DNA of 23,211 bases from Candidatus Iainarchaeum sp. Lineage in GTDB: Archaea > Iainarchaeota > Iainarchaeia > Iainarchaeales > JAZDDZ01. The stretch spans positions 1 to 23,211 of the forward strand of contig JAZDDZ010000020.1 of NCBI GenBank assembly GCA_043809245.1. The letters run 5' to 3'. The notes beneath the pieces were generated by a model. The model was not told the origin of the DNA. It searched no databases and saw only the letters and a program-made list of their open reading frames with translations. The translations under genes were made by a program, and so were the position numbers. Positions 2,809-21,661 of this stretch are shown one piece after another; position 1 is the first letter of the stretch; every line of letters begins with the position of its first letter.

Positions 2809-4113
2809 TCAGCTGATGTCAATCAGCAAAAGATTCGGGTCTTCAAGGTGCCGAACCAAGTCCTTCATGAACTGCGCTGCCTGTGCTCCGTCAACTACTC
2901 TATGGTCAAATGACAAACTGAGCGGCAGAATTTTTCTCACTTCCACTTTTCCGGCCTTAACCGCTGCGCGCTCCGTTATTCTCCCCACTCCAAGGATTGC
3001 GATTTCAGGAAAATTTATTATCGGCACGCCGAATGTTCCGCCAATGCTTCCATAATTTGTTATAGTGAAAGTGGAGTCCTGCATTTCTTCAATTGAAATG
3101 CTCCTGTCCCTTGCCTTCTGGCCTAAAACCTCTATTTCATGCCCTATTTCAAGAATGCTTTTTTCCTCAGCCTTCCTTATAACTGGCACCATCAATCCAT
3201 GCGGAGTGTCAATCGCCACGCCTATGTTGTAATAGCTTTTCGTGAGCACTTCTTTTTTTTCCTCGTCAAAAGTTGCATTGAAATAAGGGTTCAGCCTTAA
3301 CGCCGCAATCGCCGCCCTCACAATGAATGGCAGGAAAGTCAAATGGATTCCCTTGGAATCCGCGAACTCTTTTTCCTTTTCCCTTACAGCCCACAAATCA
3401 GTTACATCCGCTTCATCCATTTCAACCGCGTGAGGCTTTGTGCTCCAGCTTTTCGCCATTCTCTCAGCAATCGTCCTGCGCGTCATTGTCAAGGGAATAC
3501 GCAAAAACTTTCCGTACTTGTCAAAGGAAGCGACTGTCTCCATTTTGTAGGGCGCTTTCTTTCCCGCTTCCCCTGCGGCTTGAACCTTTTCTTGCGCTTC
3601 GGTTTTCTTCTCCTCAATGTGCGGCGAAAAAACTTTTAAGTCCTTTTCAAGAACCTGCCCATGCAATCCGCTGCCATTAATTTTTTTTAAGTCAACCCCC
3701 AGATTTTTCGCAAGCCTTCTCACTGCAGGTGTTGCAAGAACCTTTCCGCTTATCTCATGTTCTGCGGTTTTCCTTGGAGGAGCCTCCTCCAGCACTCCCA
3801 CAACCGAGGAAGTGTAGCGTTCCGCTGCCTTGCTTTCCGCTGGCTGCTTTGCATGCGCCTTCTCGCCTTCCTCTGCAATGGACACAAGCACCTGCCCTAC
3901 CTTGATTATTTGCCCTTCCCCTGCGTTTAGCCCTGCAATTGTTCCCGCTCTCGGTGACGGAAGCTCCACAACCGCTTTCGCTGTCTCAATTTCTGCAATC
4001 GGCTGGTCTGCCTTGACCCTATCGCCTTCCTTCACAAGCCATTTGACCAACTGCCCCTCAGTGATTCCCTCGCCGACATCAGGAAAACGGAATTCAAAAA
4101 CCAAATCAACCAC
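2809..4113 (-). CDS. pdhC: Dihydrolipoamide acyltransferase (E2) of a pyruvate/2-oxoacid dehydrogenase complex
   Basis: Lipoyl domain (PDVGEGITEG...ETAKA), E1/E3-binding domain (ATPAVRRLAKNLGVDL) and catalytic DHRVVDG. Confidence 0.93.
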   Translation of the reverse strand: MVDLVFEFRFPDVGEGITEGQLVKWLVKEGDRVKADQPIAEIETAKAVVELPSPRAGTIAGLNAGEGQIIKVGQVLVSIAEEGEKAHAKQPAESKAAERYTSSVVGVLEEAPPRKTAEHEISGKVLATPAVRRLAKNLGVDLKKINGSGLHGQVLEKDLKVFSPHIEEKKTEAQEKVQAAGEAGKKAPYKMETVASFDKYGKFLRIPLTMTRRTIAERMAKSWSTKPHAVEMDEADVTDLWAVREKEKEFADSKGIHLTFLPFIVRAAIAALRLNPYFNATFDEEKKEVLTKSYYNIGVAIDTPHGLMVPVIRKAEEKSILEIGHEIEVLGQKARDRSISIEEMQDSTFTITNYGSIGGTFGVPIINFPEIAILGVGRITERAAVKAGKVEVRKILPLSLSFDHRVVDGAQAAQFMKDLVRHLEDPNLLLIDIS

Positions 4114-4135
4114 TCAATAAAAAAACGCTTTTTGT

Positions 4136-4150
4136 GCTTAAAACACTTTC
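4136..4150 (-). promoter_or_regulatory. BRE/TATA promoter of pdhC
   Basis: Minus strand reads GAAAGTG-TTTTAAGC, with the TATA about 25-30 nt upstream of the GTG at 4113. Confidence 0.55.
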
Positions 4151-4184
4151 GGCGTTTGGCTTTAACCGCGTAAAAGGTTTTATT

Positions 4185-4192
4185 AAAAAAAA
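4185..4192 (-). terminator. Oligo-T terminator of surface protein A
   Basis: T8 on the minus strand 11 nt after the stop at 4204. Confidence 0.45.
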
Positions 4193-4203
4193 GCAAGCCC
4201 GGG

Positions 4204-7200
4204 CTAGGAAGTGAACTGCAGCAATCCTGCTGCGCTGCTGTTTGCGGTTTTGTTTTGTGTTGTTCCTGTTGTCGTGTTCTCTATTTTTATTTCGTATGCC
4301 TTGCTTGCCTGCAAGCCGTTCACTGCGTGGTTCACTGGGCTTGTCGCATTATACTGGTAAATCAGATTCTGCTGTGTGCAGGAATTGATTGTTCCCCCTG
4401 CAATTGAAATCGTGCAGGGTGTTGCAATGTTGACTGTGCATTGCAGCGCGGGTGTGCAGCTTGTTGTTTGCCAGGAACCGTTGCAGCAGTATCCTGAGTT
4501 AACTATTCCTGTGCATAAATTGTTTGTTGCATTGCAGTCCGGGTTTGGCGTGCTTGTTCCACAGTAGCAGATGCCTACATTTTCAGGGGTGATTTGGGTT
4601 CCGTTTGGGCAGGGCTCAGGGCCAATGTAGGCGGAAGAAACAACGTAATCATCAAGCCAAATCTGCTTTTCTTCAGGTGGAAGCCATGGCACGCCGGAAG
4701 AGCCGGGCTGGTTTGTATAAATTATATTGTCCAGCAGATTTATGGCATTAATTCCCAAAGAATTAGTTCTAAAAGTTATATTTTCTTCATCCATTACTTT
4801 TTTTCCGTCAATCCATGCTCTTGCAATTCCATTATCTAATCCAGGCGTGTTTAACTTAACATAATTCTCAATCAAAATCCACTTTCCTGGCCCATAATCA
4901 TACCATGAAACTTCGGGCCTTGAATATGGGGCTTCAGAAGGGGTTACTTCCCATGCATAAGCCATTCGCCCCCACAACCAAGCGGGAATAATGTATGCGC
5001 TGCCACTAGCAGGCAAAGTTGCCTGGCAAGCCTGGTCCCCAAGGGCTTTGATTCTGGCTAGTTTTTGCCCGTTTTGGTTTGGCCACCAGCTCCAAGTGGG
5101 GTCGTATTTCAAATACCACCTTAAATAAAGCTCATCATATCCTGCGCCAGGAAACTTGCTATCTAGTTTTCCGCCACCAGGAGCAACTCTGGATTCAACA
5201 TTAGATACTAGTGAATTACTGTTTAATCTTCCTCCGTAGTTCAGCACCTCTATTTCCGGCTCCCCATAAGTATCAAACTCTGTAAACCCACACCACTCAG
5301 GCTTGTCAGCGGGCCTGCACAAGGAAAAGTTATCCCCTGGAGCGCACAACACATCCAGCCTGTTATCTTCATCATGCCATCCCTCAAAATCGTCTTGGAA
5401 AATCACTCCCTCGCCCGGTGTGGAACAGCTCTGCGTTTCAGCCGGCTTGTAAACGGTTGTTCCGCATCCAGCTGAATCAGTGCAGGTTCTTGTCTGCGTT
5501 CCTCCAGAGCAGGCGCTCCATGCTCCGCAGCTCCATTGCTCTGTACAAGTTGTTCCTGTTCCTGGAATTTCTATTCCGTTTATTATGCATCCCCCTGTAC
5601 CGCAATTGGAGAAGCCGACTGTCAGTTGCCCGTCGTTTACATTTGTATTAAAGGTTTGTGTTGATTTTGTTCCAGCGGATAATTGTAGGTTGTTTATCAC
5701 TTGTGTTCCTTCAATGGATAGGTTCATTCCGTTGTGACTGAATACAGAGTCATAAAAGTGCAGTGTGACTGCGTATGCTCCGTTTGGCACGTCTACTAAA
5801 AAGTTTTTTGTAACAGTTGTTTGGTGTAAATCGCGTTCCATATCGCTTCCTGTTCCCCTGTCTCTTGTTTGCACGCTTGACGTGTTTTCCCACCCATAAC
5901 CTGTTGACGGGGAGTATGCTGTGAGCGAATAGTTTGTCCATCCCGCCATTGTTGGTGAGCTGCCTGTTCCGAAATCAATTTTTTCAAAGCCTGTTCCCTG
6001 CTGGCAGTTTGGAGCTATTGAGCAGCTTCCTGTGTCACTGCAGTTGATTAAACCATCGCAGTCTTCATCCAAGTTTCCAACGTCATCGCACACCTCATTT
6101 CCTGCCTGCTGGTTTTGTACGCACGAACCCCATGTTTGGTTGGAGCAGGTTTGTGTTCCGGCTGAACAAATTCCCTGCAAATCTGTTGAACAGCTTTGCG
6201 TTGCCCCATTAGTGCAATTGGAGGAAGGGCTCCATATTCCGTTGTTGCAGTATCCTGAGTCAACTATTCCTGTGCAGGCGGAAGGATTGGGTGTAATGCA
6301 GTCTCCTGCTTCGCTGCCGGATAGACAGGCGTTTGTGTTGGTTGCACAATTTGGGTTTGGTTGTGTTGGACCGCAGTAGCATACTCCTATGTTTTCAGGG
6401 GTTATTTGTATTCCGTTTGGGCATGGGCTTGGGCCTAAATAGTTTGTGGTGATTTTGAAGTCATCAAACCATATTTGTTTTTCTTCTGGCGGGAACCAGG
6501 GAACTCCAGGAGTTCCTCCCTCATAATCGTTGAGGTAAATTATGTTGTCGCCTAAGACTAGGGAGTTGATTTTTCCTTCGTTTGTTCTGATGATATAGTT
6601 TTCCTTGTGTAGGACTTTTTTGCCGTTAATCCATGTGCTGGCGATTCCGTTGTTTTGATCTAGGTCGTCCAGTTTTAGGTAGATTTCCAGGTATATCCAT
6701 TTTCCCGGGCCGTAATCGCCCCAGTATGCTTCCGGGTTGGAATAAACCGTGCTGAATGGCGCTCTATCGCGGGTATTCGCAATATGGTAAACGTTTCTGC
6801 TCCACTGCCAACTTGGTATAAGGTAAACATTGCCGTAATCCGGCAGAACACCCGCTCCGCTTCCTTCAGGGAGTGACATTATCCTCATCAGTTTATGCGT
6901 GGTTTGGTTTGGCCACCAACTCCATGTTTCATCATACTTCATGTACCAACTAAAATAAACTTCCTGGGGCAAACTCATATAGTATTTATTTATTCCGCCT
7001 CCTGGCTGGACTCGACTTTCAATGTTTGCAACCATGCTTCCAGAGTTATTACGCCCGCCCGAGGTTATAACCTGCTGGTCCGGCAACCCATACAAACTGT
7101 ACATGTGGCTAGCCTGCCAATTCCCATTAGAGGAAGTGCTGATTGTTGACGTGCTCCCATTCCAAACCACGTTTGGGTCGCTTGGAACAACGTCTGACCA

Positions 7201-7290
7201 ATTGTCAAAGTTATCCTGAAAGATGATTCCCGCACTCGCTGATACGGAAATCAATAACAGCAGTAATGCCAGTAACAATGCCTTTTTCAT
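4204..7290 (-). CDS. Secreted multidomain surface protein A (1028 aa): signal peptide, jelly-roll polysaccharide-lyase/lectin-like domain, Cys-rich linker, malectin/galactose-binding-like domain, TSP1-like repeat, second jelly-roll domain, conserved C-terminal domain
   Basis: Signal MKKALLLALLLLLISVSASA. Duplicated domain with YF.WY.KYD, KL.RI, GKWI.LE.Y.KL, NG...WI(N/D)GKKV and IW(F/L)DD. KIDFG...GYGW...VDVPNGAYAVTLHF sandwich. WSCGAWSACSGGTQTRTC TSP1-like. Domain names are by motif resemblance, not a search. Confidence 0.8.
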   Translation of the reverse strand: MKKALLLALLLLLISVSASAGIIFQDNFDNWSDVVPSDPNVVWNGSTSTISTSSNGNWQASHMYSLYGLPDQQVITSGGRNNSGSMVANIESRVQPGGGINKYYMSLPQEVYFSWYMKYDETWSWWPNQTTHKLMRIMSLPEGSGAGVLPDYGNVYLIPSWQWSRNVYHIANTRDRAPFSTVYSNPEAYWGDYGPGKWIYLEIYLKLDDLDQNNGIASTWINGKKVLHKENYIIRTNEGKINSLVLGDNIIYLNDYEGGTPGVPWFPPEEKQIWFDDFKITTNYLGPSPCPNGIQITPENIGVCYCGPTQPNPNCATNTNACLSGSEAGDCITPNPSACTGIVDSGYCNNGIWSPSSNCTNGATQSCSTDLQGICSAGTQTCSNQTWGSCVQNQQAGNEVCDDVGNLDEDCDGLINCSDTGSCSIAPNCQQGTGFEKIDFGTGSSPTMAGWTNYSLTAYSPSTGYGWENTSSVQTRDRGTGSDMERDLHQTTVTKNFLVDVPNGAYAVTLHFYDSVFSHNGMNLSIEGTQVINNLQLSAGTKSTQTFNTNVNDGQLTVGFSNCGTGGCIINGIEIPGTGTTCTEQWSCGAWSACSGGTQTRTCTDSAGCGTTVYKPAETQSCSTPGEGVIFQDDFEGWHDEDNRLDVLCAPGDNFSLCRPADKPEWCGFTEFDTYGEPEIEVLNYGGRLNSNSLVSNVESRVAPGGGKLDSKFPGAGYDELYLRWYLKYDPTWSWWPNQNGQKLARIKALGDQACQATLPASGSAYIIPAWLWGRMAYAWEVTPSEAPYSRPEVSWYDYGPGKWILIENYVKLNTPGLDNGIARAWIDGKKVMDEENITFRTNSLGINAINLLDNIIYTNQPGSSGVPWLPPEEKQIWLDDYVVSSAYIGPEPCPNGTQITPENVGICYCGTSTPNPDCNATNNLCTGIVNSGYCCNGSWQTTSCTPALQCTVNIATPCTISIAGGTINSCTQQNLIYQYNATSPVNHAVNGLQASKAYEIKIENTTTGTTQNKTANSSAAGLLQFTS
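4265..4443 (+). repeat. 179-bp direct repeat, copy 1 (3' part of gene A)
   Basis: Matches 8781-8959 with a single mismatch (4396 C vs 8912 G). Offset 4516 bp. Confidence 0.95.
6315..6360 (+). repeat. 46-bp exact repeat shared by genes A and B (other copy 10501-10546)
   Basis: TGCCGGATAGACAGGCGTTTGTGTTGGTTGCACAATTTGGGTTTGG at both positions, encoding PNPNCATNTNACLSG. Confidence 0.9.
6911..6948 (+). repeat. 38-bp exact repeat shared by genes A and B (other copy 11094-11131)
   Basis: GGCCACCAACTCCATGTTTCATCATACTTCATGTACCA at both positions, encoding WYMKYDETWSWWP. A related 29-bp exact block occurs at 5066-5094 and 9624-9652. Confidence 0.9.
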
Positions 7291-7305
7291 CGCTAATAAT
7301 TAGCG
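7291..7305. promoter_or_regulatory. Palindrome CGCTAAT-A-ATTAGCG abutting the start codon of gene A
   Basis: Perfect 7-bp arms. AGGTGA (SD-like) lies just upstream on the minus strand at 7309-7314. Confidence 0.5.
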
Positions 7306-7326
7306 CTTTCACCTATTTATGTTTAA

Positions 7327-8619
7327 CTATTTGTTTTCTTCCAGCAGCCATTTCCAGAGGGGAATGTATTGTATTGTTTTTTTGCCGGTTTTTTCTTCTT
7401 TTTCCATGCGGTCTGTTATTATTGTGCCCTTTTTTAGCCTGAATGCATTCATTGCTTCAAGCAGCCCTTTTGTTTCCCTTTCATTGTTTTCTTTTATTTG
7501 GTAGGCTACTTGAATTGCTTGAACTATTTTTTTGCCTTCCTTTATTATGAAGTCGCATTCGTTTTTGTTTTTATAGTAGAATATTTCTTTTCCTTTTTGA
7601 AAAAGCGAGAGAAATACCGCGTTTTCGTACAGCCTGCCAATGTTTTCGCTGAACCTGAATCCGGCCATGTTAATCAATCCCGCGTCAATGCAGTAAACTT
7701 TTTTCGGGTTTACCTGCTGTTCCTTTAGGGAGAAAGAGAATTTTGGGACAAAAAATGCAAGGAATGCCTGTTCAAAGTATTCCGAGAATCTTTCAACACT
7801 GTCCAAGCTTAACCCAATTGTCTCGGCATTTTTCCTGAATGAAACAGGGCATGCAAAGGAGGTTAAATATTGTTTTGCGAGCGCTTTTAGTTTTTGGGGT
7901 TTTCTTATTTTGTGCCTTTCGGCTATGTCCCGGGTTATAATGTCATCAAAGTATCTTGAGATTAGCTCTTGTTTTTCTTCTTTGAGAACAACTAATGGGA
8001 AGCCGCCGAATTCAAGGTACTCCCTTAGCAACTGCTTTATCCTGGTTTTTTGTGAAACCAAGTCAAGCCTTCGCCCTATCTTTAATTGCCTGAATTCAAG
8101 AAACTCTTGAAAGCTTAAGGGATAAACAAGCAGCTGAACCCATCTGCCTGTCAGAAGCGTTCCAAGTTCTTTGCCTAAAAGCTTTGACGAAGAATCAGAA
8201 ACAATTACATTGGCTTCCTTTTTTTCGTGTAATCCCCTTGCGAACTGCTCCCATTTCGGCGCGTTATGGACTTCATCCAGCAAAACAAACGGCTTTCCCT
8301 TTGGCTTGACAATTTCGAGGTAAGCGTCATAAATTTGTTGCAAAAACTCCAATGAAACCAGCCCTACAAACCTCGGCTCCTCAAGATTAACGTACAGAAA
8401 AGATTCGCTGCTTTCCCCGGAATTAACGCGTTTTTTAATGAACTGCTTCATTAAAGTTGATTTGCCGCTCCTCCTTACGCCCGCGATTGCCACAATCTGG
8501 TCTGTTTCAACCAGCGCTTCAAGCCTGTCCAGGTATTTCTCCCTGAAAACCCCGGAATCGGGCTGTTTGGTCCAAAAATTCCAGCTGTCCAAAACCCCAA
8601 TTATTTCCTCGTTGTTCAT
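7327..8619 (-). CDS. AAA+ ATPase (AAA_14 + DUF4143 family)
   Basis: Walker A GVRRSGKS, Walker B VLLDEVH, FGGFP, PKKVYCIDAG, ENAVF and a C-terminal ECDFII...IQV (PD-(D/E)xK-like) segment. Confidence 0.9.
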   Translation of the reverse strand: MNNEEIIGVLDSWNFWTKQPDSGVFREKYLDRLEALVETDQIVAIAGVRRSGKSTLMKQFIKKRVNSGESSESFLYVNLEEPRFVGLVSLEFLQQIYDAYLEIVKPKGKPFVLLDEVHNAPKWEQFARGLHEKKEANVIVSDSSSKLLGKELGTLLTGRWVQLLVYPLSFQEFLEFRQLKIGRRLDLVSQKTRIKQLLREYLEFGGFPLVVLKEEKQELISRYFDDIITRDIAERHKIRKPQKLKALAKQYLTSFACPVSFRKNAETIGLSLDSVERFSEYFEQAFLAFFVPKFSFSLKEQQVNPKKVYCIDAGLINMAGFRFSENIGRLYENAVFLSLFQKGKEIFYYKNKNECDFIIKEGKKIVQAIQVAYQIKENNERETKGLLEAMNAFRLKKGTIITDRMEKEEKTGKKTIQYIPLWKWLLEENK

Positions 8620-8640
8620 GCAAAAATAGGGTGCTTAAAA

Positions 8641-8716
8641 CAATATAAATGTATCGGTCACTTTTTAGTAATTTTTTACTAATATATCGGTCACTATTAA
8701 CGCTTAAAAATAGCGT
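8641..8716 (-). promoter_or_regulatory. ATPase promoter region with direct and inverted repeats
   Basis: TTTATATTG TATA on - (8641-8649). AATRTATCGGTCACTWTT twice (8648-8665, 8681-8698). Palindromes TTAGTAA-TTTT-TTACTAA (8665-8682) and ACGCT-N7-AGCGT (8700-8716). Confidence 0.65.
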
Positions 8717-8719
8717 GTT

Positions 8720-11479
8720 TTATGAACCGAACTGCAGCACTCCAGCCGAATTCGTGTTTGCGGTTTTGTTTTGCGTTGCCCCTGTTGTCGTGTTCTCTAT
8801 TTTTATTTCGTATGCCTTGCTTGCCTGCAAGCCGTTCACTGCGTGGTTCACTGGGCTTGTCGCATTATACTGGTAAATCAGATTCTGCTGTGTGCAGGAA
8901 TTGATTGTTCCGCCTGCAATTGAAATCGTGCAGGGTGTTGCAATGTTGACTGTGCATTGTATTGCGGGTGTGCAGCTTGTTGTTTGCCAGTTTCCGTTGC
9001 AGCAGTAGCCTGAATTGACTATTCCAGGGCATGCTGATGGATTGGCGGCAATGTATTCTCCTGCTAAGGGGTCTGTGGAAGGAGAATTGGTGTTAGTAGC
9101 GCAATCAGGGTTTGGCGAGCCGGTGCCGCAATAACAGGTGCCAACATTTCCAGGGGTTATTTCCACTCCGTTGAGGCATGGTTCCGGGCCAATGTAATTA
9201 GTGGAGACTTTTACGTCATCAAACCATATTTGTTTTTCTTCTGGTGGAAGCCAGGGTATGCCGGAACTTCCGGCTTGGTTTGTATAGATTATATTATCTC
9301 CAATGGTGAGATTAGTGAAATTATAATTGCTGTTTCTTATAGTTACGCCTTCCTGATGCAATACTTTTTTTCCGTTAATCCAGGAAGTCATTATTCCGTT
9401 GCTTTGCCCGACTGTATTAAGTTTTGCGTATACTTCGATTAAAATCCATTTTCCTGCGCCGTAATCATACCAAGCGGCATCTGGATTGGCGTATGTTGTT
9501 GGATTGCCTCCCTCGGGCCAGATCCTGTAAGTCATGCGCCCCCATACAATGCCGGGAATTAGATGGTTATTTAAAGTGCCGCAACTCGCCCCTGCAGGGC
9601 CTACATTTATTCTCGCTAGTTTCTGCCCGTTTTGGTTTGGCCACCAGCTCCATGTTGGGTCATATTTGGTGTACCACCTGAAATATAATTCGTCATGGGT
9701 TTGGTCTGATAGTGCTGCCCCTACTCCGGCGGCAGGCTGCACTCTTGATTCAATGTTGCCTTCTACGCTGTGGCTGTTGTATCTTCCTTTTGATGATATT
9801 ACTTGTGTGTCTGGCAATCCATATTCGCTCCATTGCTGTGAATAACACCATTTTCCGTTTGAAGCGGAAGAAATGCTTCCATTCGAGGGGCTCCAAAGCA
9901 GGTAACTGTCGTTCGGAACCGCATCATTCCATCCCTCAAAATCATCCTCGAAAATCACTCCCGCGCCCGGCGTGGAACAGCTTTGCGTTTCCACTGGCTT
10001 ATTCGTTGTTGTTCCGCATGCGGCTGAATCGGTACAGGTTCTTGTCTGCGTTCCACCCAAGCACGCGCTCCATGAAGTGCAACTCCAGTTTTCCGTGCAT
10101 GTTGTGGATTGTGTGGTTGCTGAAGAAATGCTTGAATAACCAGACAAATTTCCCGCAGCATCAGTTGCTCTCACCCTATACCTGTAAGTTGTGTTTGCTG
10201 TTAGGCTTGTGTTGTTGTATGTTGTTCCTGTTGGTGTTGCAATTTGTGAAAAGCTCGTGCAGCTTGCGCCTGTACAGCGTTCTAAGCGGTAACCTGTTAC
10301 TCCAATGTTGTCTGTTGAAGCACTCCAAGAAAGATTTATCTGCGTGGAAGAAGCCGCAGTTGCGGCAAGGTTTGTTGGCGTTGAGGGCGGCGTGGTGTCA
10401 CTTGTCCCGTCTGGGCTCCAGACCCCGTTATTGCAGTAACCCGAGTCAACTATTCCCGTGCATGCCGAAAGATTGGGTGTAATGCAGTCTCCTGCTTGGT
10501 TGCCGGATAGACAGGCGTTTGTGTTGGTTGCACAATTTGGGTTTGGCGTTGAAGAACCGCAGTAGCATGTGCCTATGTTTTCCGGTGTGATTTCAGTTCC
10601 GTTCGGGCAGGGCTCGGGGCCAATGTAATCAGTACTTACAACAAAATCATCAATCCACATCTGCTTTTCCTCAGGCGGCAACCATGGCACACCAGGAGTT
10701 CCCCCGACAAAATCGTTGGTGTAAATGATATTGTCGGGAAATACGATTTTATCTAGGTGGACATTGCTTGTCCTTAATTCCCTATTTTCAATATGGAGAA
10801 CTTTCTTCCCGTCAATCCAGGAGGTTAAAACCCCATTGCTCTCCCCTAATGTGTTAAGTTTGATGTAAGTTTCTAATAAAATCCATTTTCCAAAGCCGTA
10901 TTTTTTTGTACAGGAGTCAAGATCCGTCATGCATACTTCCGGGTTGGAATAAATTGTTGGACTTACCGTGCCGCCTATGGCATAAACCATTCTTCCCCCA
11001 GTCCAGAAGGGCTTAGCATATTCTGTCAGCGCACCGCATGCAGTTCCCTCTGGAGTCCATTGTATTCTTGCCAGTTTCTGCCCATTCTGCTCAGGCCACC
11101 AACTCCATGTTTCATCATACTTCATGTACCAGCGAAAATACAGTTCGTCTTTTGTTTTGTCTGGAAGCCAGCCAGTGACACACGCAGCGGGTTGAACTCT
11201 TGACTCAATGTTTCCTACAAAAGCATTGCTGTTTAACCTGCCGCCGCTATCAACTACTTGTGAATCCGGCAAACCATAATCACTCCAATTACACATGCCA
11301 CACCACTCACTTCCCTCAGGCCTACACTGCGAAATGTTGCTGTTTGGGTTGCATAAAACCAATGGGTCATTGGGAACCGTGTCGTGCCACCCCTCAAAGT
11401 TATCCTGAAAAATAATTCCTGCGCTGGCTGATATGGAAATCAACAGCAGCAGTAAAGCCAGCAAAATTATTTTTTTCAT
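8720..11479 (-). CDS. Secreted multidomain surface protein B (~919 aa), paralog of A, with a fibronectin type III domain as its central module
   Basis: Signal MKKIILLALLLLLISISASA. Same duplicated jelly-roll domain, TSP1-like repeat and C-terminal domain as A. FN3 motif DTTPPSTPTNL...LSWSASTDNIGVTGY...YRYRVRATDAAGNLS. AGGTGA overlapping the pdhB stop favours ATG 11479 over GTG 11491. Confidence 0.8.
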   Translation of the reverse strand: MKKIILLALLLLLISISASAGIIFQDNFEGWHDTVPNDPLVLCNPNSNISQCRPEGSEWCGMCNWSDYGLPDSQVVDSGGRLNSNAFVGNIESRVQPAACVTGWLPDKTKDELYFRWYMKYDETWSWWPEQNGQKLARIQWTPEGTACGALTEYAKPFWTGGRMVYAIGGTVSPTIYSNPEVCMTDLDSCTKKYGFGKWILLETYIKLNTLGESNGVLTSWIDGKKVLHIENRELRTSNVHLDKIVFPDNIIYTNDFVGGTPGVPWLPPEEKQMWIDDFVVSTDYIGPEPCPNGTEITPENIGTCYCGSSTPNPNCATNTNACLSGNQAGDCITPNLSACTGIVDSGYCNNGVWSPDGTSDTTPPSTPTNLAATAASSTQINLSWSASTDNIGVTGYRLERCTGASCTSFSQIATPTGTTYNNTSLTANTTYRYRVRATDAAGNLSGYSSISSATTQSTTCTENWSCTSWSACLGGTQTRTCTDSAACGTTTNKPVETQSCSTPGAGVIFEDDFEGWNDAVPNDSYLLWSPSNGSISSASNGKWCYSQQWSEYGLPDTQVISSKGRYNSHSVEGNIESRVQPAAGVGAALSDQTHDELYFRWYTKYDPTWSWWPNQNGQKLARINVGPAGASCGTLNNHLIPGIVWGRMTYRIWPEGGNPTTYANPDAAWYDYGAGKWILIEVYAKLNTVGQSNGIMTSWINGKKVLHQEGVTIRNSNYNFTNLTIGDNIIYTNQAGSSGIPWLPPEEKQIWFDDVKVSTNYIGPEPCLNGVEITPGNVGTCYCGTGSPNPDCATNTNSPSTDPLAGEYIAANPSACPGIVNSGYCCNGNWQTTSCTPAIQCTVNIATPCTISIAGGTINSCTQQNLIYQYNATSPVNHAVNGLQASKAYEIKIENTTTGATQNKTANTNSAGVLQFGS
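8781..8959 (+). repeat. 179-bp direct repeat, copy 2 (3' part of gene B)
   Basis: 178/179 identical to 4265-4443. Confidence 0.95.
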
Positions 11480-11491
11480 TGATTTTTTCAC

Positions 11492-12472
11492 CTAAAAATT
11501 AACCGCCTTTTCAACCGCCCTTTCCACTGCGAACGCATCCGGCAAATAATAATTCTCATTCTTGTACAATGGCATCACAGTGTCAAAGCCAGTAACCCTT
11601 TCAACCGGTGCCTCCAAATACAGCAAAGCCTTTTCATTTATCACTGCAACCACTTCCGCGCCAAAGCCACAGGTGCGCGGCGCCTCATGCAAAACAACCG
11701 CTCTCCCGGTTTTCTTCACCGAAGCCGCAATCGCCTCGTCATCCAATGGGGATAAAGTCCTTAAATCAATTACCTCTGCCCCAATTCCCTTTTTTTCCTT
11801 CAGGTTTTTCGCGGCTTCAAGCGCAATGCGAACCATTGCGCCCCAGCAGAAAATGCTTGCATCCCTTCCATCCCGTGCAACCCTTGCTTTCCCGATTTCT
11901 TCCAAATATTCTTTTTCAGGCACCTCTTCCCTTACCGCGCGGTAAATTTTTTTCGGCTCAAGAAAAATTATTGGATCAGGGGAGCGAATGCTTGAGGCAA
12001 GCAATCCCTTTGCATCAAAAGGAGTTGAAGGAATAACTGTCTTTATGCCGGGCATGTGCGCGAAAAAAGCCTCAGGGCTTTCCGAGTGGTGTTCCGGCGC
12101 ATGAATGCCTCCGGAGTAAGGCGCCCTGATAACCATTGGCGCAGTGAACCTTCCCCTTGACCTTGTGCGAATCCTGCTAATGTGCGAAATTATCTGGTCA
12201 AACGCAGGGTAAATGAAGCCGCTGAACTGAATCTCTGCAACAGGCCTGAATCCCTTTAACGCCAATCCGAATGAAGCGCCAACAATTCCTGACTCGCTTA
12301 ACGGAGTGTCAATTACTCTTTCTGCGCCGAATTTTTTCCACAATCCATCAGTAACCCTGAATACTCCGCCGTTAATGCCCACATCCTCGCCTATCAATAA
12401 AACGTTTTTATCCCTCTCCATTTCCTGTTTCAATGCAAGGTTTATCGCTTCAACCATGTTCAGTTCAGCCAT
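11492..12472 (-). CDS. pdhB: Pyruvate/2-oxoacid dehydrogenase E1 beta subunit
   Basis: GEDVGINGGVFRVT, DTPLSESGIVG, EIQF, EHHSES and DLRTLSPLD motifs. Confidence 0.95.
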   Translation of the reverse strand: MAELNMVEAINLALKQEMERDKNVLLIGEDVGINGGVFRVTDGLWKKFGAERVIDTPLSESGIVGASFGLALKGFRPVAEIQFSGFIYPAFDQIISHISRIRTRSRGRFTAPMVIRAPYSGGIHAPEHHSESPEAFFAHMPGIKTVIPSTPFDAKGLLASSIRSPDPIIFLEPKKIYRAVREEVPEKEYLEEIGKARVARDGRDASIFCWGAMVRIALEAAKNLKEKKGIGAEVIDLRTLSPLDDEAIAASVKKTGRAVVLHEAPRTCGFGAEVVAVINEKALLYLEAPVERVTGFDTVMPLYKNENYYLPDAFAVERAVEKAVNF

Positions 12473-17247: not shown

Positions 17248-18618
17248 TTAAACGTACAGCAGCAGCTCGGATAAATCGCTTATCTGCACGTCGGCTTTTT
17301 TTGCAATGTTCCTTTCCGCGTTGAACGCAATTCCCAATCCCGCTTTCTTCAGCATGCATTCGTCCTCTATGCTGTCCCCAACTGCAATGCTTTCAGAGGC
17401 ACCTGCGTTCGCTTCCTTTAAAATTCTGCCAAGGATTACGGCTTTGCACTGCATTGCGCCGTGGAATGAACAGCTTTTCTTCCCTGTCTTGCTGAATGAA
17501 ATCCTTCCGGTGAAAGCCTTTCTTTTTATCTGCAGCTTCGGGCACCTGAAACTTTCAATGCCGAGCTTTTGCGCAAAGAATGCAACTATTGGCTCGAATG
17601 AATGCGAAACAATCGCTAGCCTGTAACCGCTTGTTTTCAGTTTTTTAACTACTTTTTCCGCGTTCTTCTGCAGGCGCATTTTCTGCAGAATCAGCGCAAG
17701 GTCCTCGGTTTTTTTTCCATTGAAGTGCCTTGCAATCGCCTGGCTTAACTCGAATTCCTTTAACTCGCCTTTCTGGAGCCTTCCATTTAATTCAAGCAGC
17801 TCAGCCTCAAAGCCCCATTCTTTTGCAATCACCTCAAGGCTGTCATCTGCGATGAGCGTCTTGTCCAAATCAAATACAATTATTTTCCTGTTTTTGCCTA
17901 GTACGCCCGCCTTTTCAAGTATGGTTTTCGAAACCTGTTCTGCCATTGGAACCAGGCCAATCCATGTCTTGTGCCTGTGCTCTATTTTTCCGATGAACAC
18001 TTCCTTGAGCCTTGCGCCTTTTTTTGTGGCGTCAAGCAGAATGCCAACATCAACGCCGTAATCGTTCGCTATCGGCATTTTTTCAAGGATTTTCCGCCTT
18101 GCGCTGAACTGTCCGCTCAAAGGCTGCCTTATGGTTTCCCCAAACAAGTGCTTCATTAACGGGTTTGCCACCAGCTGTGTTACCCTTCCCGCAGCCCTTT
18201 CAAAATCCCCTTTCACAATGTCTGCTTCATTGAAAGCCAGGGGCTCCACTAAAAGGTCAACTGCCTTTGGATTCAGGTCCTTTAAATCTGCATCAACAAA
18301 GCATAGAATCTGCCCCTTTGATTTCTCTATGCCTGTCTTTATCGCCGCGCCTTTTCCCCTGTTTTTTGAATGAGAGAAAACAATCGCCCCGGCTTTCCGC
18401 GCTTCTTCTGCGGTTTCATCCTTTGACCCGTCATCCACTACAATTAATTCGTCAACCCACTTGTTTTTCTTCACTATTTCGATTACTTTTCTTATTGTCT
18501 TGCATTCATTGTACGCGGGAATTATCACGCTTACAGAAGGCCTTGAAAGGTACTTGTGCCAGAAGCGCCTTGCGTGGTAAAAAAAGCCACTGTTTTCTTC
18601 TCCGCTAAAACCATTCAT
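17248..18618 (-). CDS. Fusion of a GpgS/MpgS-like glycosyltransferase (GT-A fold) with a SerB-like HAD phosphatase
   Basis: VIIPAYNE, VDDGSKD, NRGKG, DAD, GRVTQLVANPL, QPLSGQF and YGVDVGILLD, followed by FDLDKTL, IVSHS and VGDSIED. ATG 18618 preferred because TATA lies 26-33 nt upstream and it avoids overlap with the divergent gene. Confidence 0.85.
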   Translation of the reverse strand: MNGFSGEENSGFFYHARRFWHKYLSRPSVSVIIPAYNECKTIRKVIEIVKKNKWVDELIVVDDGSKDETAEEARKAGAIVFSHSKNRGKGAAIKTGIEKSKGQILCFVDADLKDLNPKAVDLLVEPLAFNEADIVKGDFERAAGRVTQLVANPLMKHLFGETIRQPLSGQFSARRKILEKMPIANDYGVDVGILLDATKKGARLKEVFIGKIEHRHKTWIGLVPMAEQVSKTILEKAGVLGKNRKIIVFDLDKTLIADDSLEVIAKEWGFEAELLELNGRLQKGELKEFELSQAIARHFNGKKTEDLALILQKMRLQKNAEKVVKKLKTSGYRLAIVSHSFEPIVAFFAQKLGIESFRCPKLQIKRKAFTGRISFSKTGKKSCSFHGAMQCKAVILGRILKEANAGASESIAVGDSIEDECMLKKAGLGIAFNAERNIAKKADVQISDLSELLLYV

Positions 18619-18643
18619 TGCCCTAAAATTGGCGTTAATACTC

Positions 18644-18657
18644 CTTAAAAATTTAAA
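18644..18657. promoter_or_regulatory. Bidirectional TATA region between the GT-HAD fusion and the stand-alone HAD gene
   Basis: CTTAAAAATTTAAA lies in the middle of a 56-nt gap, about 25-30 nt from both start codons. Confidence 0.5.
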
Positions 18658-18674
18658 GCCATCCAATTCTCTCA

Positions 18675-19334
18675 ATGAATTCATGCAAAAAAGCGGAAAA
18701 ATCCGCGGGAATCGCGTTCTTTGACTTGGATAAAACGCTTATACGGGAAAGCAGCATTGAAGCAATATCCAAGCGTTTTGGCTTCTTCAGGGAACTGAAA
18801 AAACTCAGGGCAAAGCTGAAAAAAGGAAAAATAAAGGATTTCCAAATCACCCTCTCGCTAGCTGAAATTCTCAAGGGAAGGAAAAAAAGCGAAATAACCG
18901 CTGCCTGCAAAAAAATTCATCTGCAGAAAAACGCGAAAAAAACAATTCATGGCCTTAAAAAAAAGGGATTTGAAATAGCCATTGTCTCGGTTGCATTTTC
19001 ACCCGTTGTACGGTTTTTTGCAAAAAAGTTTGGAGTTAAAATAGCAGCCTCTCCAATGCTTGAATCCGATGCGAAAGGCATTTTCAACGGAAAAGTGCTG
19101 CCAAAAAAAAGGCATTCAGGAAGCTGCTGCGGCAATTTCATCTGCAAGAGCCGTGAGGCAAAAAAACTAATGAAAAAACTGAAAATTGGGCGGAACAATT
19201 GCATTGCGGTTGGAGACGGCACAAGCGACAAATGCCTTTTCCGCGCCTGCGGGAAAGCATTCGCGTTGAATCCAAAGGTCAGGATTGGTGGAAAAAAAAT
19301 CAGGGATTTAATCGAAGTGCTGCGCTTCGTTTAA
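18675..19334 (+). CDS. SerB-like HAD phosphatase, paralog of the HAD domain of the neighbouring fusion
   Basis: FFDLDKTL, IVSVAF, CKS and VGDGTSD motifs. Confidence 0.85.
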   Translation: MNSCKKAEKSAGIAFFDLDKTLIRESSIEAISKRFGFFRELKKLRAKLKKGKIKDFQITLSLAEILKGRKKSEITAACKKIHLQKNAKKTIHGLKKKGFEIAIVSVAFSPVVRFFAKKFGVKIAASPMLESDAKGIFNGKVLPKKRHSGSCCGNFICKSREAKKLMKKLKIGRNNCIAVGDGTSDKCLFRACGKAFALNPKVRIGGKKIRDLIEVLRFV

Positions 19335-19348
19335 TTTGCGCGGCGGGT

Positions 19349-21661
19349 TCAGAAAACTTCTTCCGCGTAATGCCCGCGCGTGAACTTCGCGAACTTCTTC
19401 AGCGGCTTTTTTCCCTTTCTTTTTTCAGCGAGGAATTCCAGCGCATCCATTGCCTCCGCTTTCTCCGTTGCAGTGAAGTCCAATGCAACCATTCCGAACC
19501 CGGAAAACTTTTCAAGCTCGAAAAGCATGTCAACAGGCAAAGGGTTAAAGATGCGCATTATCCCCTGCTCATCAAAAAACACTTTGTAGCGGAAGTCCTT
19601 CCTGTCCGACAATTCGTATTCTTTCTGCATTTTTTCTTTTGCGTAAGCCCTTGAAACCATCAGGCAAGGGTAAAAGAAAACAAGCGGAACAAGCCTTTCG
19701 CGAAAAGGCATTTCATTAAGCTGCCTGATTGACAATTCAACGGATGGAACGATTTTTTCCGCGCCCAAATCCACGAGCAGTTTCACGGAAAGCGAATTGA
19801 ATGCATTCAGTTCCCTGCCAGCCCAAAAGCGCACCTTGCTTTTAACAGCAAGCTGCAGCGCGCCCAAATTTGAGCAAACAATTCCCTTTGCTTTTTTCAA
19901 AAACCTTTCCTCAAATTCGCGCAAATCCTCATCAGACTGAATCTTCGGCGATTTCACGTAATCAGATTCATTCGGCAAAAAACCGCTGCAGACAACCTCA
20001 TCAGCATTCTTTGCGCTTTCCTCCAGCAATTCCTTGTTGTCAAGGAAAACAACTGTTTTTTGCGCGCCTTTTTCCATTGCCCCGTTTGCCTCAAATGAAA
20101 GCAGTTTTTCTTTTTTCTCCGCAAAACCTTTTTCATCCACCTTGCGCCTGTATTCCAGGAAAAGCTTTTCGCGCATTTCACGCATTATCTTGTTCTTGAA
20201 TGCCTTCAGCACGCTTAAAGGCACGAAAGGCTTTCCTTCAATTTCACAGCTGAATTTTCCAGTTGAAAAGAAATCGCTTTCCTTGAACAGCTTTCCCCCA
20301 AGCATTTCCCTAGTCGCCTTTATTTTCTCGGATTCATTTGGAACAAAATCGTGCAGAATCTCCGCATTAATTCCCGCAAATTTAGCCCTAGCATGCAATT
20401 GTTTTCCCGCTGCCGCGGAAACATGCAAATCATATTTCACCGCGGAATTTTTCTTTATTGACGAATAAGCGAAGTCCTTCAGCTTTTTGCTTGACGTGAA
20501 GTAAAGCCTTTGCCCTTCCTCGAGGTAAGGCTTTTTTCCGGTCTGCACCAGAACAGTTTCCCCTTTGAGCGCCTTGAAAACAGCTTTTTTTCCCTTGAAT
20601 ATTTTAACCGCGCTGAACTCCTCCACCTCATCGCCTTTCACGTGCGCGAACCTGTCCCACTGGAAAAGATTTTCATAAAGCTTTAACCTAACCATTGCCC
20701 CCGCGAAACCCAGGACCTCTGCTGCCAGAAGCCCCTTGCGCGCGGAAGCAGCGGGATGCACCAATTCGTTTTCACCCAAAATATGCCCTCTAGTCGGCTC
20801 GCGCATGAAAGCGATTTTCATCAGCTTCACATCCCCCTCTGAAAGCCTTTCTTTTGCATTAAAGCACGCATCAATTGCGTGCCTGTAAGCGCGCGCAACC
20901 GCTGCAACATACTCAACGCCCTTCAGCCTTCCCTCCACCTTGAAAGAATCAATTCCCGCTTCAATCAATTGCTTCACATTGTAGGCTGTCATCAAATCCT
21001 TCATCGACAAAACAAACCCGCTTCTGCTTTCCTTTCCCCCCTTTCCCTTCAGCGTGTAAGGCAGGCGGCAGGGCTGCAGGCACATCCCCCTGTTGCCGGA
21101 TTTCTTGAACAAAAAGCTGCTGAAAAGGCACTGGCCCGAATAAGAAAAGCACAAGGCGCCGTGCACAAAGCACTCAATCTCCGCCCCGCAGTTTTTCTTT
21201 ATTTCCCTTATTTCTTTCAATGAAAGCTCTCTCGCCAAAACGATTTTTTTCACGCCCAATTCTTCCAGAAACTTTGCGCCCGCGCTGTTATGGCATGTCA
21301 ACTGCGTTGAGGCATGCAGTTCAAGTTCAGGCAGCAATTCGCGCAATGCCTTAATCAACCCCAAATCCTGAACAATCACTGCATCGATTCCGAGCGTGAA
21401 AGCGTTTTTCGCGGTTTCAATTGCTTCACTTATTTCGGAATCTTTGATGAGGATGTTCAGCGCCAAGTATGCCTTTTTTTTGTGCAAATGGCAGAAATCA
21501 ATCGCATCCCTTAACTGTTCCCCTGCGAAATTTTGCGCGGGAATCCTTGCATTGAATTTTTTTGCGCCAAAGTAAACAGCGTCAGCTCCGTTAAGGACAG
21601 CGGCCTTTAACGCATCCATTGAGCCGGCGGGAAGAATGAGTTCGGGTTTTCTGTAATCCAT
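19349..21661 (-). CDS. Long-form U32-family protein (RlhA/TrhP-like Fe-S RNA hydroxylase family, 'collagenase-like')
   Basis: PELILPAG, GADAVYFG, HASTQ, LARELS, FVHGALCFSYSGQC...NRGMCLQPCRLPY and KVEGR, with a degenerate second U32 half ending TRGHY. Confidence 0.9.
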   Translation of the reverse strand: MDYRKPELILPAGSMDALKAAVLNGADAVYFGAKKFNARIPAQNFAGEQLRDAIDFCHLHKKKAYLALNILIKDSEISEAIETAKNAFTLGIDAVIVQDLGLIKALRELLPELELHASTQLTCHNSAGAKFLEELGVKKIVLARELSLKEIREIKKNCGAEIECFVHGALCFSYSGQCLFSSFLFKKSGNRGMCLQPCRLPYTLKGKGGKESRSGFVLSMKDLMTAYNVKQLIEAGIDSFKVEGRLKGVEYVAAVARAYRHAIDACFNAKERLSEGDVKLMKIAFMREPTRGHILGENELVHPAASARKGLLAAEVLGFAGAMVRLKLYENLFQWDRFAHVKGDEVEEFSAVKIFKGKKAVFKALKGETVLVQTGKKPYLEEGQRLYFTSSKKLKDFAYSSIKKNSAVKYDLHVSAAAGKQLHARAKFAGINAEILHDFVPNESEKIKATREMLGGKLFKESDFFSTGKFSCEIEGKPFVPLSVLKAFKNKIMREMREKLFLEYRRKVDEKGFAEKKEKLLSFEANGAMEKGAQKTVVFLDNKELLEESAKNADEVVCSGFLPNESDYVKSPKIQSDEDLREFEERFLKKAKGIVCSNLGALQLAVKSKVRFWAGRELNAFNSLSVKLLVDLGAEKIVPSVELSIRQLNEMPFRERLVPLVFFYPCLMVSRAYAKEKMQKEYELSDRKDFRYKVFFDEQGIMRIFNPLPVDMLFELEKFSGFGMVALDFTATEKAEAMDALEFLAEKRKGKKPLKKFAKFTRGHYAEEVF

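Follow-up and report, generated by a model that had tools for sequence, protein, structure and literature searches.

Cassette antigenic variation is known from pilE/pilS of Neisseria and from vlsE of Borrelia, and diversity-generating retroelements (DGRs) are reported to be common in DPANN archaea. Another described situation is that of mosaic surface-protein families, such as the paralogous merozoite surface antigens of Plasmodium falciparum (PMC10919680) and the surface factors of Porphyromonas gingivalis with their domain rearrangements (PMC5266723), as presented in the available parts of these two papers. Among the polysaccharide lyases (PL), the PL14 enzyme vAL-1 digests a cell-wall glucuronate polymer with Lys197 and Ser219 as catalytic residues, and a catalytic Lys occurs both in vAL-1 and in the PL36 enzyme Aly36B, according to the available part of a review (PMC13709232). 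The present study deals with a 23,211-nucleotide stretch of DNA from Candidatus Iainarchaeum sp. (contig JAZDDZ010000020.1, called the window hereafter), where two genes, A and B, encode four copies of one jelly-roll domain named A1, A2, B1 and B2. From the letters of the window, it had been proposed (the original prediction) that these copies are crosswise mosaics forming a recombination-diversified surface system. As argued below, A and B probably belong to an expanded, secreted and modular family of PL14-like proteins, which would be mosaic by occasional recombination between paralogs, with no dedicated machinery.

The four homologous domains lie on the minus strand where they had been placed, with E-values of 1e-80 to 2e-194 against B1 in searches of the organism's own genome. 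The six scaffold motifs proposed for them (ESRV.P, KYD.TWSWWP, GKWI, GKKV, DNIIY and PW.PPEEKQ.W.DD) are all present in each of the four aligned copies. The genes and domains are as follows.

Gene A: 4204..7290, minus strand, 1028 aa, from the open reading frame (ORF) and its translation
Gene B: 8720..11491, minus strand, 923 aa from a GTG start, an ATG lying 4 codons further in
Domain A1: 6421..7230, minus strand, 'SNG' N-terminal cassette, divergent copy
Domain A2: 4609..5409, minus strand, 'Cys-loop' cassette, group II with C49_1, C44b_2 and C24_1
Domain B1: 10607..11419, minus strand, 'Cys-loop' cassette, group I
Domain B2: 9176..9961, minus strand, 'SNG' cassette, group III with C44a_2, C54a_1 and C37_1 (support 100/100)

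The N-terminal cassette of the domain (~45 residues, alignment columns ~12-60) occurs in two forms. The 'SNG' form is found in A1 and B2, and the 'Cys-loop' form, which has an extra Cys pair, in A2 and B1. Over columns 12-60, A1/B2 and A2/B1 are both 48% identical, as compared with 18% for A1/A2, 26% for A2/B2, 35% for A1/B1 and 42% for B1/B2. Thus, the crosswise likeness of the N-termini noticed at first sight is real. A tree of columns 1-62 (19 rows) separates the SNG from the Cys-loop copies with a support of 100/99. The columns after the N-terminal segment reject this split (log-likelihood difference, dlnL, of 88.3; p = 0.0003 in the approximately unbiased, AU, test). In this comparison of the N-terminus with the rest of the domain, the 19 rows include four copies from other metagenome-assembled genomes (MAGs). 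Not among them are C16_2, three copies of the outgroup type and two outside proteins with a truncated N-terminus.

Downstream of the cassette, the domains had been expected to pair by position, A1 with B1 and A2 with B2. This expectation fails for the domain as a whole. Over columns 61-305, the six pairs are all 53-61% identical, B1/B2 being the highest, and the grouping of A1 with B1 (AU p = 0.003), like that of A2 with B2 (AU p = 3e-8), is rejected by the data of the rest of the domain. Four-taxon informative nucleotide sites are spread 35:31:25 over the three topologies. Pairing by position holds only in patches, namely in the WYMKYDETW / KYDPTW block and in the ND[FY]xGGTPG indel with the linker that follows. 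Short exact DNA blocks of 29 to 46 bp had also been announced. Blocks of 29-38 nt were indeed found, and there is no exact block of 46 nt inside the domains. Judged against 500 synonymous-codon resamplings, the blocks of 38 nt in A1/B1 (P = 0.002), 30 nt in A1/B2 (P = 0.002) and 29 nt in A2/B2 (P = 0.010) are longer than expected, the first and the last lying in the KYDxTWSWWP scaffold; in the remaining three of the six pairs, block length stays within the null (P = 0.24-0.74).

The same question can be considered with the other copies of the domain in the genome. In a whole-domain maximum-likelihood (ML) tree of 19 copies, three groups are distinguished: group I (B1, C49_2, C48_1, C37_2 and C54b_1), group II (A2, C49_1, C44b_2 and C24_1; support 99/97) and group III (B2, C37_1, C54a_1 and C44a_2, 100/100, joined by C54a_2 and A1, 94/97). 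The pairwise homoplasy index (PHI) test gives p = 0.002 with the four copies and p = 0.004 with 16 copies. When 15 copies are divided into nucleotide segments, the tree of the whole domain is rejected by S1 (columns 1-60; AU 0.0004) and S2 (columns 61-130; AU 0.017) but not by S3 (AU 0.08) or S4 (AU 0.22), and all four segments reject one another's ML trees. Across the tests, the AU rejections come with a dlnL of 27-142. A single-breakpoint scan was also run, a topology switch near residue ~45 having been foreseen. The gain in corrected Akaike information criterion (dAICc), which mixes topology and branch-length effects, amounts to -78 and -183 at columns 38 and 56, respectively, and is best, -254, at column 125. 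These values agree with two or more breaks, one of them near residue 45-55.

Discrete characters point in the same direction. For five complex characters (the N-terminal form, three multi-residue indels and one middle-segment type), all four combinations occur in 7 of the 10 pairs of characters. For instance, X4_1, a copy from another MAG, combines the SNG N-terminus with the middle type that C37_2 and C54b_1 bear together with a Cys-loop N-terminus. When genes A and B are painted with their paralogs, the best match switches module by module. Along domain B1, the nearest neighbour is C37_2 over columns 1-60, then C54b/C49_2, C48_1 and finally C49_2. For A1, the rest of the domain goes best with group II (94/88), although group III is not rejected (AU 0.14). 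Considering the PHI test, the AU tests on segments and on N-terminus versus rest, the breakpoint scan and the character pairs, recombination between paralogous copies is real at the family level, as the original prediction had it. What the genome holds is a set of full-length paralogs with significantly conflicting segment phylogenies, that is, a recombining paralog family.

The age of the exchanges was judged by DNA identity and by synonymous divergence (dS). In windows of 40 codons, the four copies are 36-73% identical in DNA. For the closest paralogs, dS goes from about 0.3 to saturated, and the ratio of nonsynonymous to synonymous divergence (dN/dS) is 0.02-0.45 in every segment; in the most variable one (columns 141-200), it amounts to 0.2-0.45 where estimable. 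Columns 63-317 of B1 are sister to X4_2, a copy in the MAG of another species (100/97), so that the paralog lineages are older than that species split. Most exchanges are old. Two tracts shared by A and B are younger than this background.

Recent A/B tract in the C-terminal domain (CTD): 4239..4475 (A side) and 8755..8991 (B side), minus strand, seen by pairwise alignment, painting and dS
Older A1/B1 tract: 6227..6550 (A side) and 10413..10736 (B side), minus strand, last loop of domain 1 and Cys-rich linker

Events of intermediate age include the N-terminus of B1 as compared with that of C37_2 (80-86% nucleotide identity and dS 0.41-0.75, the other segments being saturated) and the A1/B1 tract. 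In the latter, the ND[YF]xGGTPG indel and the linker are 80% identical over 325 nt, with 88% in the 3′ ~150-170 nt, as against 73-74% over comparable lengths with the next-best paralog, where one 55-nt match reaches 82%. The recent tract covers ~237 nt with ~6 mismatches, of which a core of 179 nt has 1 mismatch. Painting gives 98-99% inside the tract and identity falls abruptly to ~70-80% on both sides. Its dS is 0.13, as compared with a median of 1.03 over 78 CTD pairs. This tract homogenises a conserved domain and brings no loop diversification. General concerted evolution of the CTD was considered and is ruled out by the median dS over the 78 pairs, only A/B being low.

Elsewhere in the family, the first 690 nt of the ORFs C49 (C49:77139-77828) and C54b (C54:113301-113990), encoding the signal peptide and a galactose-binding-like domain, are 92% identical and correspond to an exchange of intermediate age. 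The all-against-all comparison of the family reported no other block with a length of 100 nt or more and an identity of 88% or more.

One may ask whether recombination has to be invoked at all. Conflicting trees might also arise if loops converged or evolved in parallel, if rates were unequal or if old paralogs were misaligned. Variable segments are hard to align, the sequences are highly diverged with saturated dS, A1 gives no significant conflict of its N-terminus with the rest, and the WYMKYDETW block is full of low-degeneracy codons. However, the re-assortment of the indels VCxTxLxxCTK, LPxxG and ND[FY]xGGTPG together with the two cassette forms makes convergence unlikely. Moreover, neither the abrupt step of the A/B tract (97-99% against its flanks) nor the contrast between unsaturated and saturated segments in B1/C37_2 would be expected under this explanation, and the same holds for AU rejections of the size given above. 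Evolution free of recombination is therefore distinctly unlikely.

Another possibility would be that the mosaics were made by metagenome assembly or binning, through chimeric joins between paralogs or merged strains. The genome is indeed a MAG in 55 contigs, 7 of the 13 family loci stand within ~2 kb of a contig end, and contigs are broken at a repeated ATPase gene. Against this, exact blocks inside the domains do not exceed 38 nt and are too short to mislead a large-k assembly, up to four family loci are found on a single contig (C54), with two genes each on C20 and C44, and estimated contamination is 0.89%. The same re-assortment is also observed with copies of two other MAGs (X4_1 and X17_1). 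Finally, a 151-nt contig of one sequencing run is identical to positions 4438-4588 of the window and spans the edge of the A/B tract, although this run may not be independent of the assembly. An artefactual origin thus appears scarcely credible.

Whether the exchanges reflect a dedicated device is a distinct question. In the original prediction, loops would be shuffled by segmental gene conversion, giving diversification independent of reverse transcriptase (RT). RT-independence is upheld, as PF00078 has no match in the 91.8%-complete genome; a control search found this Pfam in 3 of 14 known genomes. On the contrary, no support was obtained for a dedicated or still active diversification among the four copies, in view of their DNA identity, of dS values saturated or near 1, of dN/dS below 1 and of the sharing of the B1 lineage with the MAG of another species, which indicates old and stable lineages. 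No silent cassette was found: searching the genome with all family proteins (tblastn) gave no PL14 fragment outside the known loci. All 19 copies are in full-length ORFs with signal-peptide-like starts, and the sole remnant is a piece containing only the CTD.

At the population level, one sequencing run (0.05 share of sampled words) gave 10 contigs, with no joints among them; 3 match at 99% or more (151-176 nt) and the others are paralog-like, below 95%. In a scan of metagenome contigs (596 stretches), at least 21 loci were confirmed, one 54% identical and the others 23-30%, with no strain-level variant among them.

A programmed, still active segmental gene conversion, which would yield new loop combinations on a fixed scaffold and track a glycan or host target, could nonetheless be envisaged. 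Recombination signals are significant, exact scaffold blocks exceed the codon-resampling null in three of the six pairs, one A/B tract is very recent, and ATPase genes of the AAA_14/DUF4143 type, which could conceivably act on DNA, are linked to 7 of the 13 loci. However, saturated dS with dN/dS below 1 whichever segment of the closest paralogs is considered, the low DNA identity per window and the lineage retained as an ortholog across species do not fit a system in operation. The sole recent tract is homogenising and located in the conserved CTD, silent cassettes and RT are lacking, and a look at the flanks of four family loci from outside this genome did not reveal the ATPase. Such a programmed system is unlikely. 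Old exchanges, purifying selection and the lack of RT and silent cassettes rather argue for low-rate ectopic recombination.

As to the nature of the domain, each of the four copies is assigned to a PL14-like polysaccharide-lyase jelly roll from the PF21294 profile and from a predicted structure. PF21294 scores above its curated cut-off (27 bits) in both genes, with two matching stretches in each, the best ones covering mainly profile positions ~134-215 of 215. An AlphaFold2 model of B1, for which the 19 copies of the genome were used, shows a jelly roll made of beta strands only, with a predicted local distance difference test (pLDDT) of 82.7. Its top Foldseek matches are the T. reesei PL20 glucuronan lyase 2zzj, the PL36 alginate lyase 6kcw (Aly36B) and the PL14 structures 5gmt, 3gne and 3a0n, with E-values of 9e-10 to 4e-7, template-modelling (TM) scores of 0.46-0.62 and 12-15% identity, the top ones at a probability of 1.00. 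Generic jelly rolls rank behind the lyases. In profile searches of PDB sequences (E ≤ 10), all four matches are glucuronan or alginate lyases; only PL20 and PL36 chains, aligned in part, were retrieved, and no PL14 enzyme. Twelve residues are invariant in all 19 copies (R61, E72, Y98, K100, K115, R118, E183, D229, N230, E251, D257 and D258 in B1-domain numbering), several of them sitting on core strands of the model. In the same numbering, the variable segments are residues 12-47, 78-90, 119-178 and 205-250. The glycan-cleaving type suspected for the domain is thus borne out at the level of prediction. Catalysis itself is putative since these residues could not be aligned to a PL14 enzyme. Most likely, the domain would bind and cleave a uronic-acid-containing polymer outside the cell, for instance an exopolysaccharide or an envelope glycan of another cell.

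Alternatively, the domains could be non-catalytic carbohydrate-binding modules of the lectin or adhesin type, built on a lyase fold and serving attachment instead of cleavage. Only the C-terminal third of PF21294 is well covered, catalytic residues are putative, lectin-like jelly rolls and receptor-binding domains also appear in the Foldseek list, and the proteins bear modules of the kinds that adhesins typically have (malectin-like, fn3, Big_7 and PKD). On the other hand, sequence matches in the PDB are lyases only and the best structural matches are PL20, PL36 and PL14 enzymes. R61, E72, Y98, K100, K115, R118 and E183 stand on core strands and are strictly conserved, and a Lys is catalytic in the PL14 and PL36 enzymes of the review mentioned above. 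Distant relatives are, moreover, parts of bacterial multi-enzyme proteins with dockerin, cohesin or type IX secretion system (T9SS) signals. A purely binding role is possible, if rather doubtful.

The four copies do not stand alone. They are 4 of the 19 (search with the B1 protein) or 20 (family profile, one copy being partial) PL14-like copies of the genome, and each has closer relatives elsewhere. These copies are distributed over 11 ORFs. All 11 start with a Lys-rich, then a hydrophobic stretch and then an Ala-x-Ala type motif, in a signal-peptide-like manner. The family comprises 11 full genes, one related gene and one remnant, and amounts to ~2% of a genome of 1.48 Mb. This genome is that of a small archaeon with Iainarchaeota/Diapherotrites as relatives. 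Among the genes of the window is one for a CTP-dependent riboflavin kinase, an enzyme that is typically archaeal, and the closest outside proteins belong to MAGs named Candidatus Diapherotrites or Iainarchaeum, with close relatives in two Ca. Iainarchaeum MAGs.

In a profile search of 40 genomes of the same order, the domain was found in one, as a single copy. Among 1.84 billion representative proteins, there are 16 matches at E ≤ 1e-30, 229 at E ≤ 1e-10 and 3209 at E ≤ 1e-3, the distant relatives being multi-domain enzymes of bacteria. With few archaeal and mostly bacterial relatives on one side and 19-20 copies in one genome on the other, the family represents a lineage-specific expansion of an otherwise mostly bacterial domain. 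In the literature, only PL1 and PL0 lyases are reported for DPANN bins in the available part of one study (PMC8091004). No paper joining DPANN and PL14 was found, and among the papers listed for Diapherotrites and 'polysaccharide lyase', titles and opening lines of abstracts do not describe the present family.

Genes A and B have a similar modular build. From its N-terminus, the product of gene A contains a signal peptide, A1, a Cys-rich linker, an EGF-like Cys module, a malectin/galactose-binding-like domain, a WSxWS Cys module, A2, a linker and the CTD. That of gene B contains a signal peptide, B1, a Cys-rich linker, an fn3 domain, a WSxWS module, B2, a linker and the CTD. Pfam matches are PF21294 (49.5 bits), PF21254 and PF11721 in A, and PF21294 (56.7 bits) and fn3 (40 bits) in B.

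The WSxWS module (~5410-5540 and ~9962-10110, minus strand) follows the pattern W-S-C-x-x-W-S-x-C...Q-T-R-x-C-T-D and stands before every second PL14 domain. One further copy is located at an unrelated locus (C21:1300-1446). Although Pfam recognises it in neither A nor B at E ≤ 0.1, we take it to resemble thrombospondin type 1 repeats.

The CTD, of ~95 aa (window 4207-4500 and 8726-9016, minus strand), ends every protein of the family and is also present in proteins of other Iainarchaeum MAGs. Its consensus reads QCTVN...CTIS..GG.IN.C.QQNLIYQY...IKIENTT.G..QNK...GVLQF. In genes A and B, no Pfam family matches it, its AlphaFold2 model is poor (pLDDT 58.7), and it may be an envelope anchor or a sorting signal. 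In the genome, it occurs at 13 loci, i.e. the 11 genes, a 1189-aa beta-helix protein and the remnant. The latter (C54:33212-33685) consists of the end of a linker and the CTD, with no signal peptide or PL14 domain, adjoins an ATPase paralog and is likely a gene fragment.

Between B and A lies an ATPase gene, and the block formed by the three genes is bordered by genes of a 2-oxoacid dehydrogenase.

AAA_14 + DUF4143 ATPase: 7327..8619, minus strand, between B and A, matching the PADLOC family PDC-S01
2-oxoacid dehydrogenase E1 beta: 11492..12472, minus strand, upstream border of the B-ATPase-A block, from Pfam
2-oxoacid dehydrogenase E2: 2809..4113, minus strand, downstream border of the block, from Pfam
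ATPase paralogs on other contigs: C54:33895-35079, C54:115295-115966, C44:10786-11937, C49:77859-78476 and C24:8419-9090

The window also encodes a GT2 glycosyltransferase fused to a HAD phosphatase (17248-18684, minus strand) and a 770-aa U32 peptidase of the collagenase type (19349-21661, minus strand).

The B-ATPase-A block (7.4 kb, window 4114-11491) separates E1 beta from E2. At nine loci of relatives of the same order, E1 beta and E2 are at most 155 nt apart in seven and ~1.3 kb apart in one, E1 beta not being found in the examined flank of the last. Since these genes adjoin in 7 of the 9 loci, the block looks as if it had been inserted in the operon of the 2-oxoacid dehydrogenase. Its borders show no repeats, direct or inverted, that reach 10 nt.

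The ATPase matches the candidate-defence family PDC-S01 of PADLOC with an E-value of 1e-113, and in this genome ATPase paralogs are located within 250 bp of 7 of the 13 family loci. A pair of ATPase genes that are 98% identical coincides with four contig ends. Together, the 690-nt block shared by C49 and C54b and the shared ATPase copy suggest a second gene-ATPase-gene unit split across contigs. It is tempting to imagine that the family and its AAA_14/DUF4143 ATPases form an archaeal 'var-like' variation system, the ATPase driving cassette exchange and the spread of gene-ATPase-gene units like the one that interrupts the dehydrogenase operon. If so, the ATPase, with its possibly nuclease-like DUF4143 part, would promote breaks or mobility, and a DPANN archaeon would re-assort its glycan-recognition loops with no RT. 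We consider this very improbable.

In the favoured model of a secreted family recombining at a low rate, evolution would have proceeded by duplication and by the shuffling of entire modules, with paralogs now and then exchanging sequence through ectopic recombination or gene conversion. The N-terminal cassette of ~45 residues would be one clear unit of exchange, of which two old forms were re-assorted onto different domain bodies, and this re-assortment would account for the crosswise likeness of A1/B2 and A2/B1. It would belong to an ancient stage. The B1 N-terminus shared with C37_2 and the A1/B1 linker would represent an intermediate stage and the A/B tract in the CTD a recent one, the copies being held by purifying selection between exchanges.

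Several points weigh against this model. Lyase activity is predicted only, from a match to part of PF21294; Foldseek TM scores are moderate (0.5-0.6) and generic jelly rolls match as well. Taken alone, A1 shows no significant conflict. Shifts in rate, selection that makes loops converge and uncertain alignment of the variable regions can all inflate AU, PHI and breakpoint tests, and the 'SNG' group was set by eye from the N-terminal sequence ahead of testing. Population-level data come from one sequencing run with few short contigs. Finally, the tight linkage between the family and PDC-S01-type ATPases is left unexplained by an ordinary paralog family.

Devoting ~2% of a tiny DPANN genome to a secreted, disulfide-rich, lyase-like family that is nearly lacking in relatives of the same order suggests that the organism interacts in a specialised way with some polysaccharide, either extracellular or of a host. 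The family thereby supplies concrete candidates for expression and assay. It is also a clear natural case in which an old cassette with two forms was re-assorted among archaeal paralogs. The ATPase linkage and the insertion into a metabolic operon give leads on how such families spread. The present evidence adds no new kind of diversification mechanism.

These features can now be set against the systems from which we started. With the PL14 (PF21294; Chlorella virus vAL-1 and Aplysia AkAly30), PL20 and PL36 lyases, the domains share the same Pfam above cut-off, the same predicted jelly roll and conserved Lys, Arg and Tyr on core strands; by analogy with the wall digestion by vAL-1, an attack on an envelope or exopolysaccharide would be plausible. 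They differ from these enzymes by an identity of only 12-15%, by matching only part of the profile, by catalytic residues that are putative here and by the extra N-terminal cassette with its two forms. They are also arranged as tandem pairs, in Cys-rich modular proteins that have a family-specific CTD and an archaeal host.

Compared with pilE/pilS and vlsE, exchange is likewise RT-independent and involves segmental transfer between homologous copies. However, the family has no expression site with silent promoterless cassettes, its events are mostly ancient and it lacks long guide repeats of high identity, the copies being 36-73% identical with longest exact blocks of 29-38 nt. The targets of DGRs are comparable in being surface or secreted proteins of archaea with small genomes, but no RT was found in the 91.8%-complete genome, nor any near-identical template/variable repeat pair among the family genes. 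With the mosaic surface families, finally, the proteins share many full-length paralogs, conserved blocks between variable segments, conflicting segment trees, old dimorphic segment forms that were re-assorted and occasional recent conversion tracts. Here, in contrast, immune-type diversifying selection is not seen (dN/dS < 1) and the host is an uncultured archaeon with a 1.5-Mb genome. Hence, the evolutionary behaviour of the family resembles that of mosaic multigene surface-protein families, the defining features of cassette systems and of DGRs being absent. We regard it as an ordinary family of recombining paralogs, whose main point of note is that it expanded in a DPANN archaeon.

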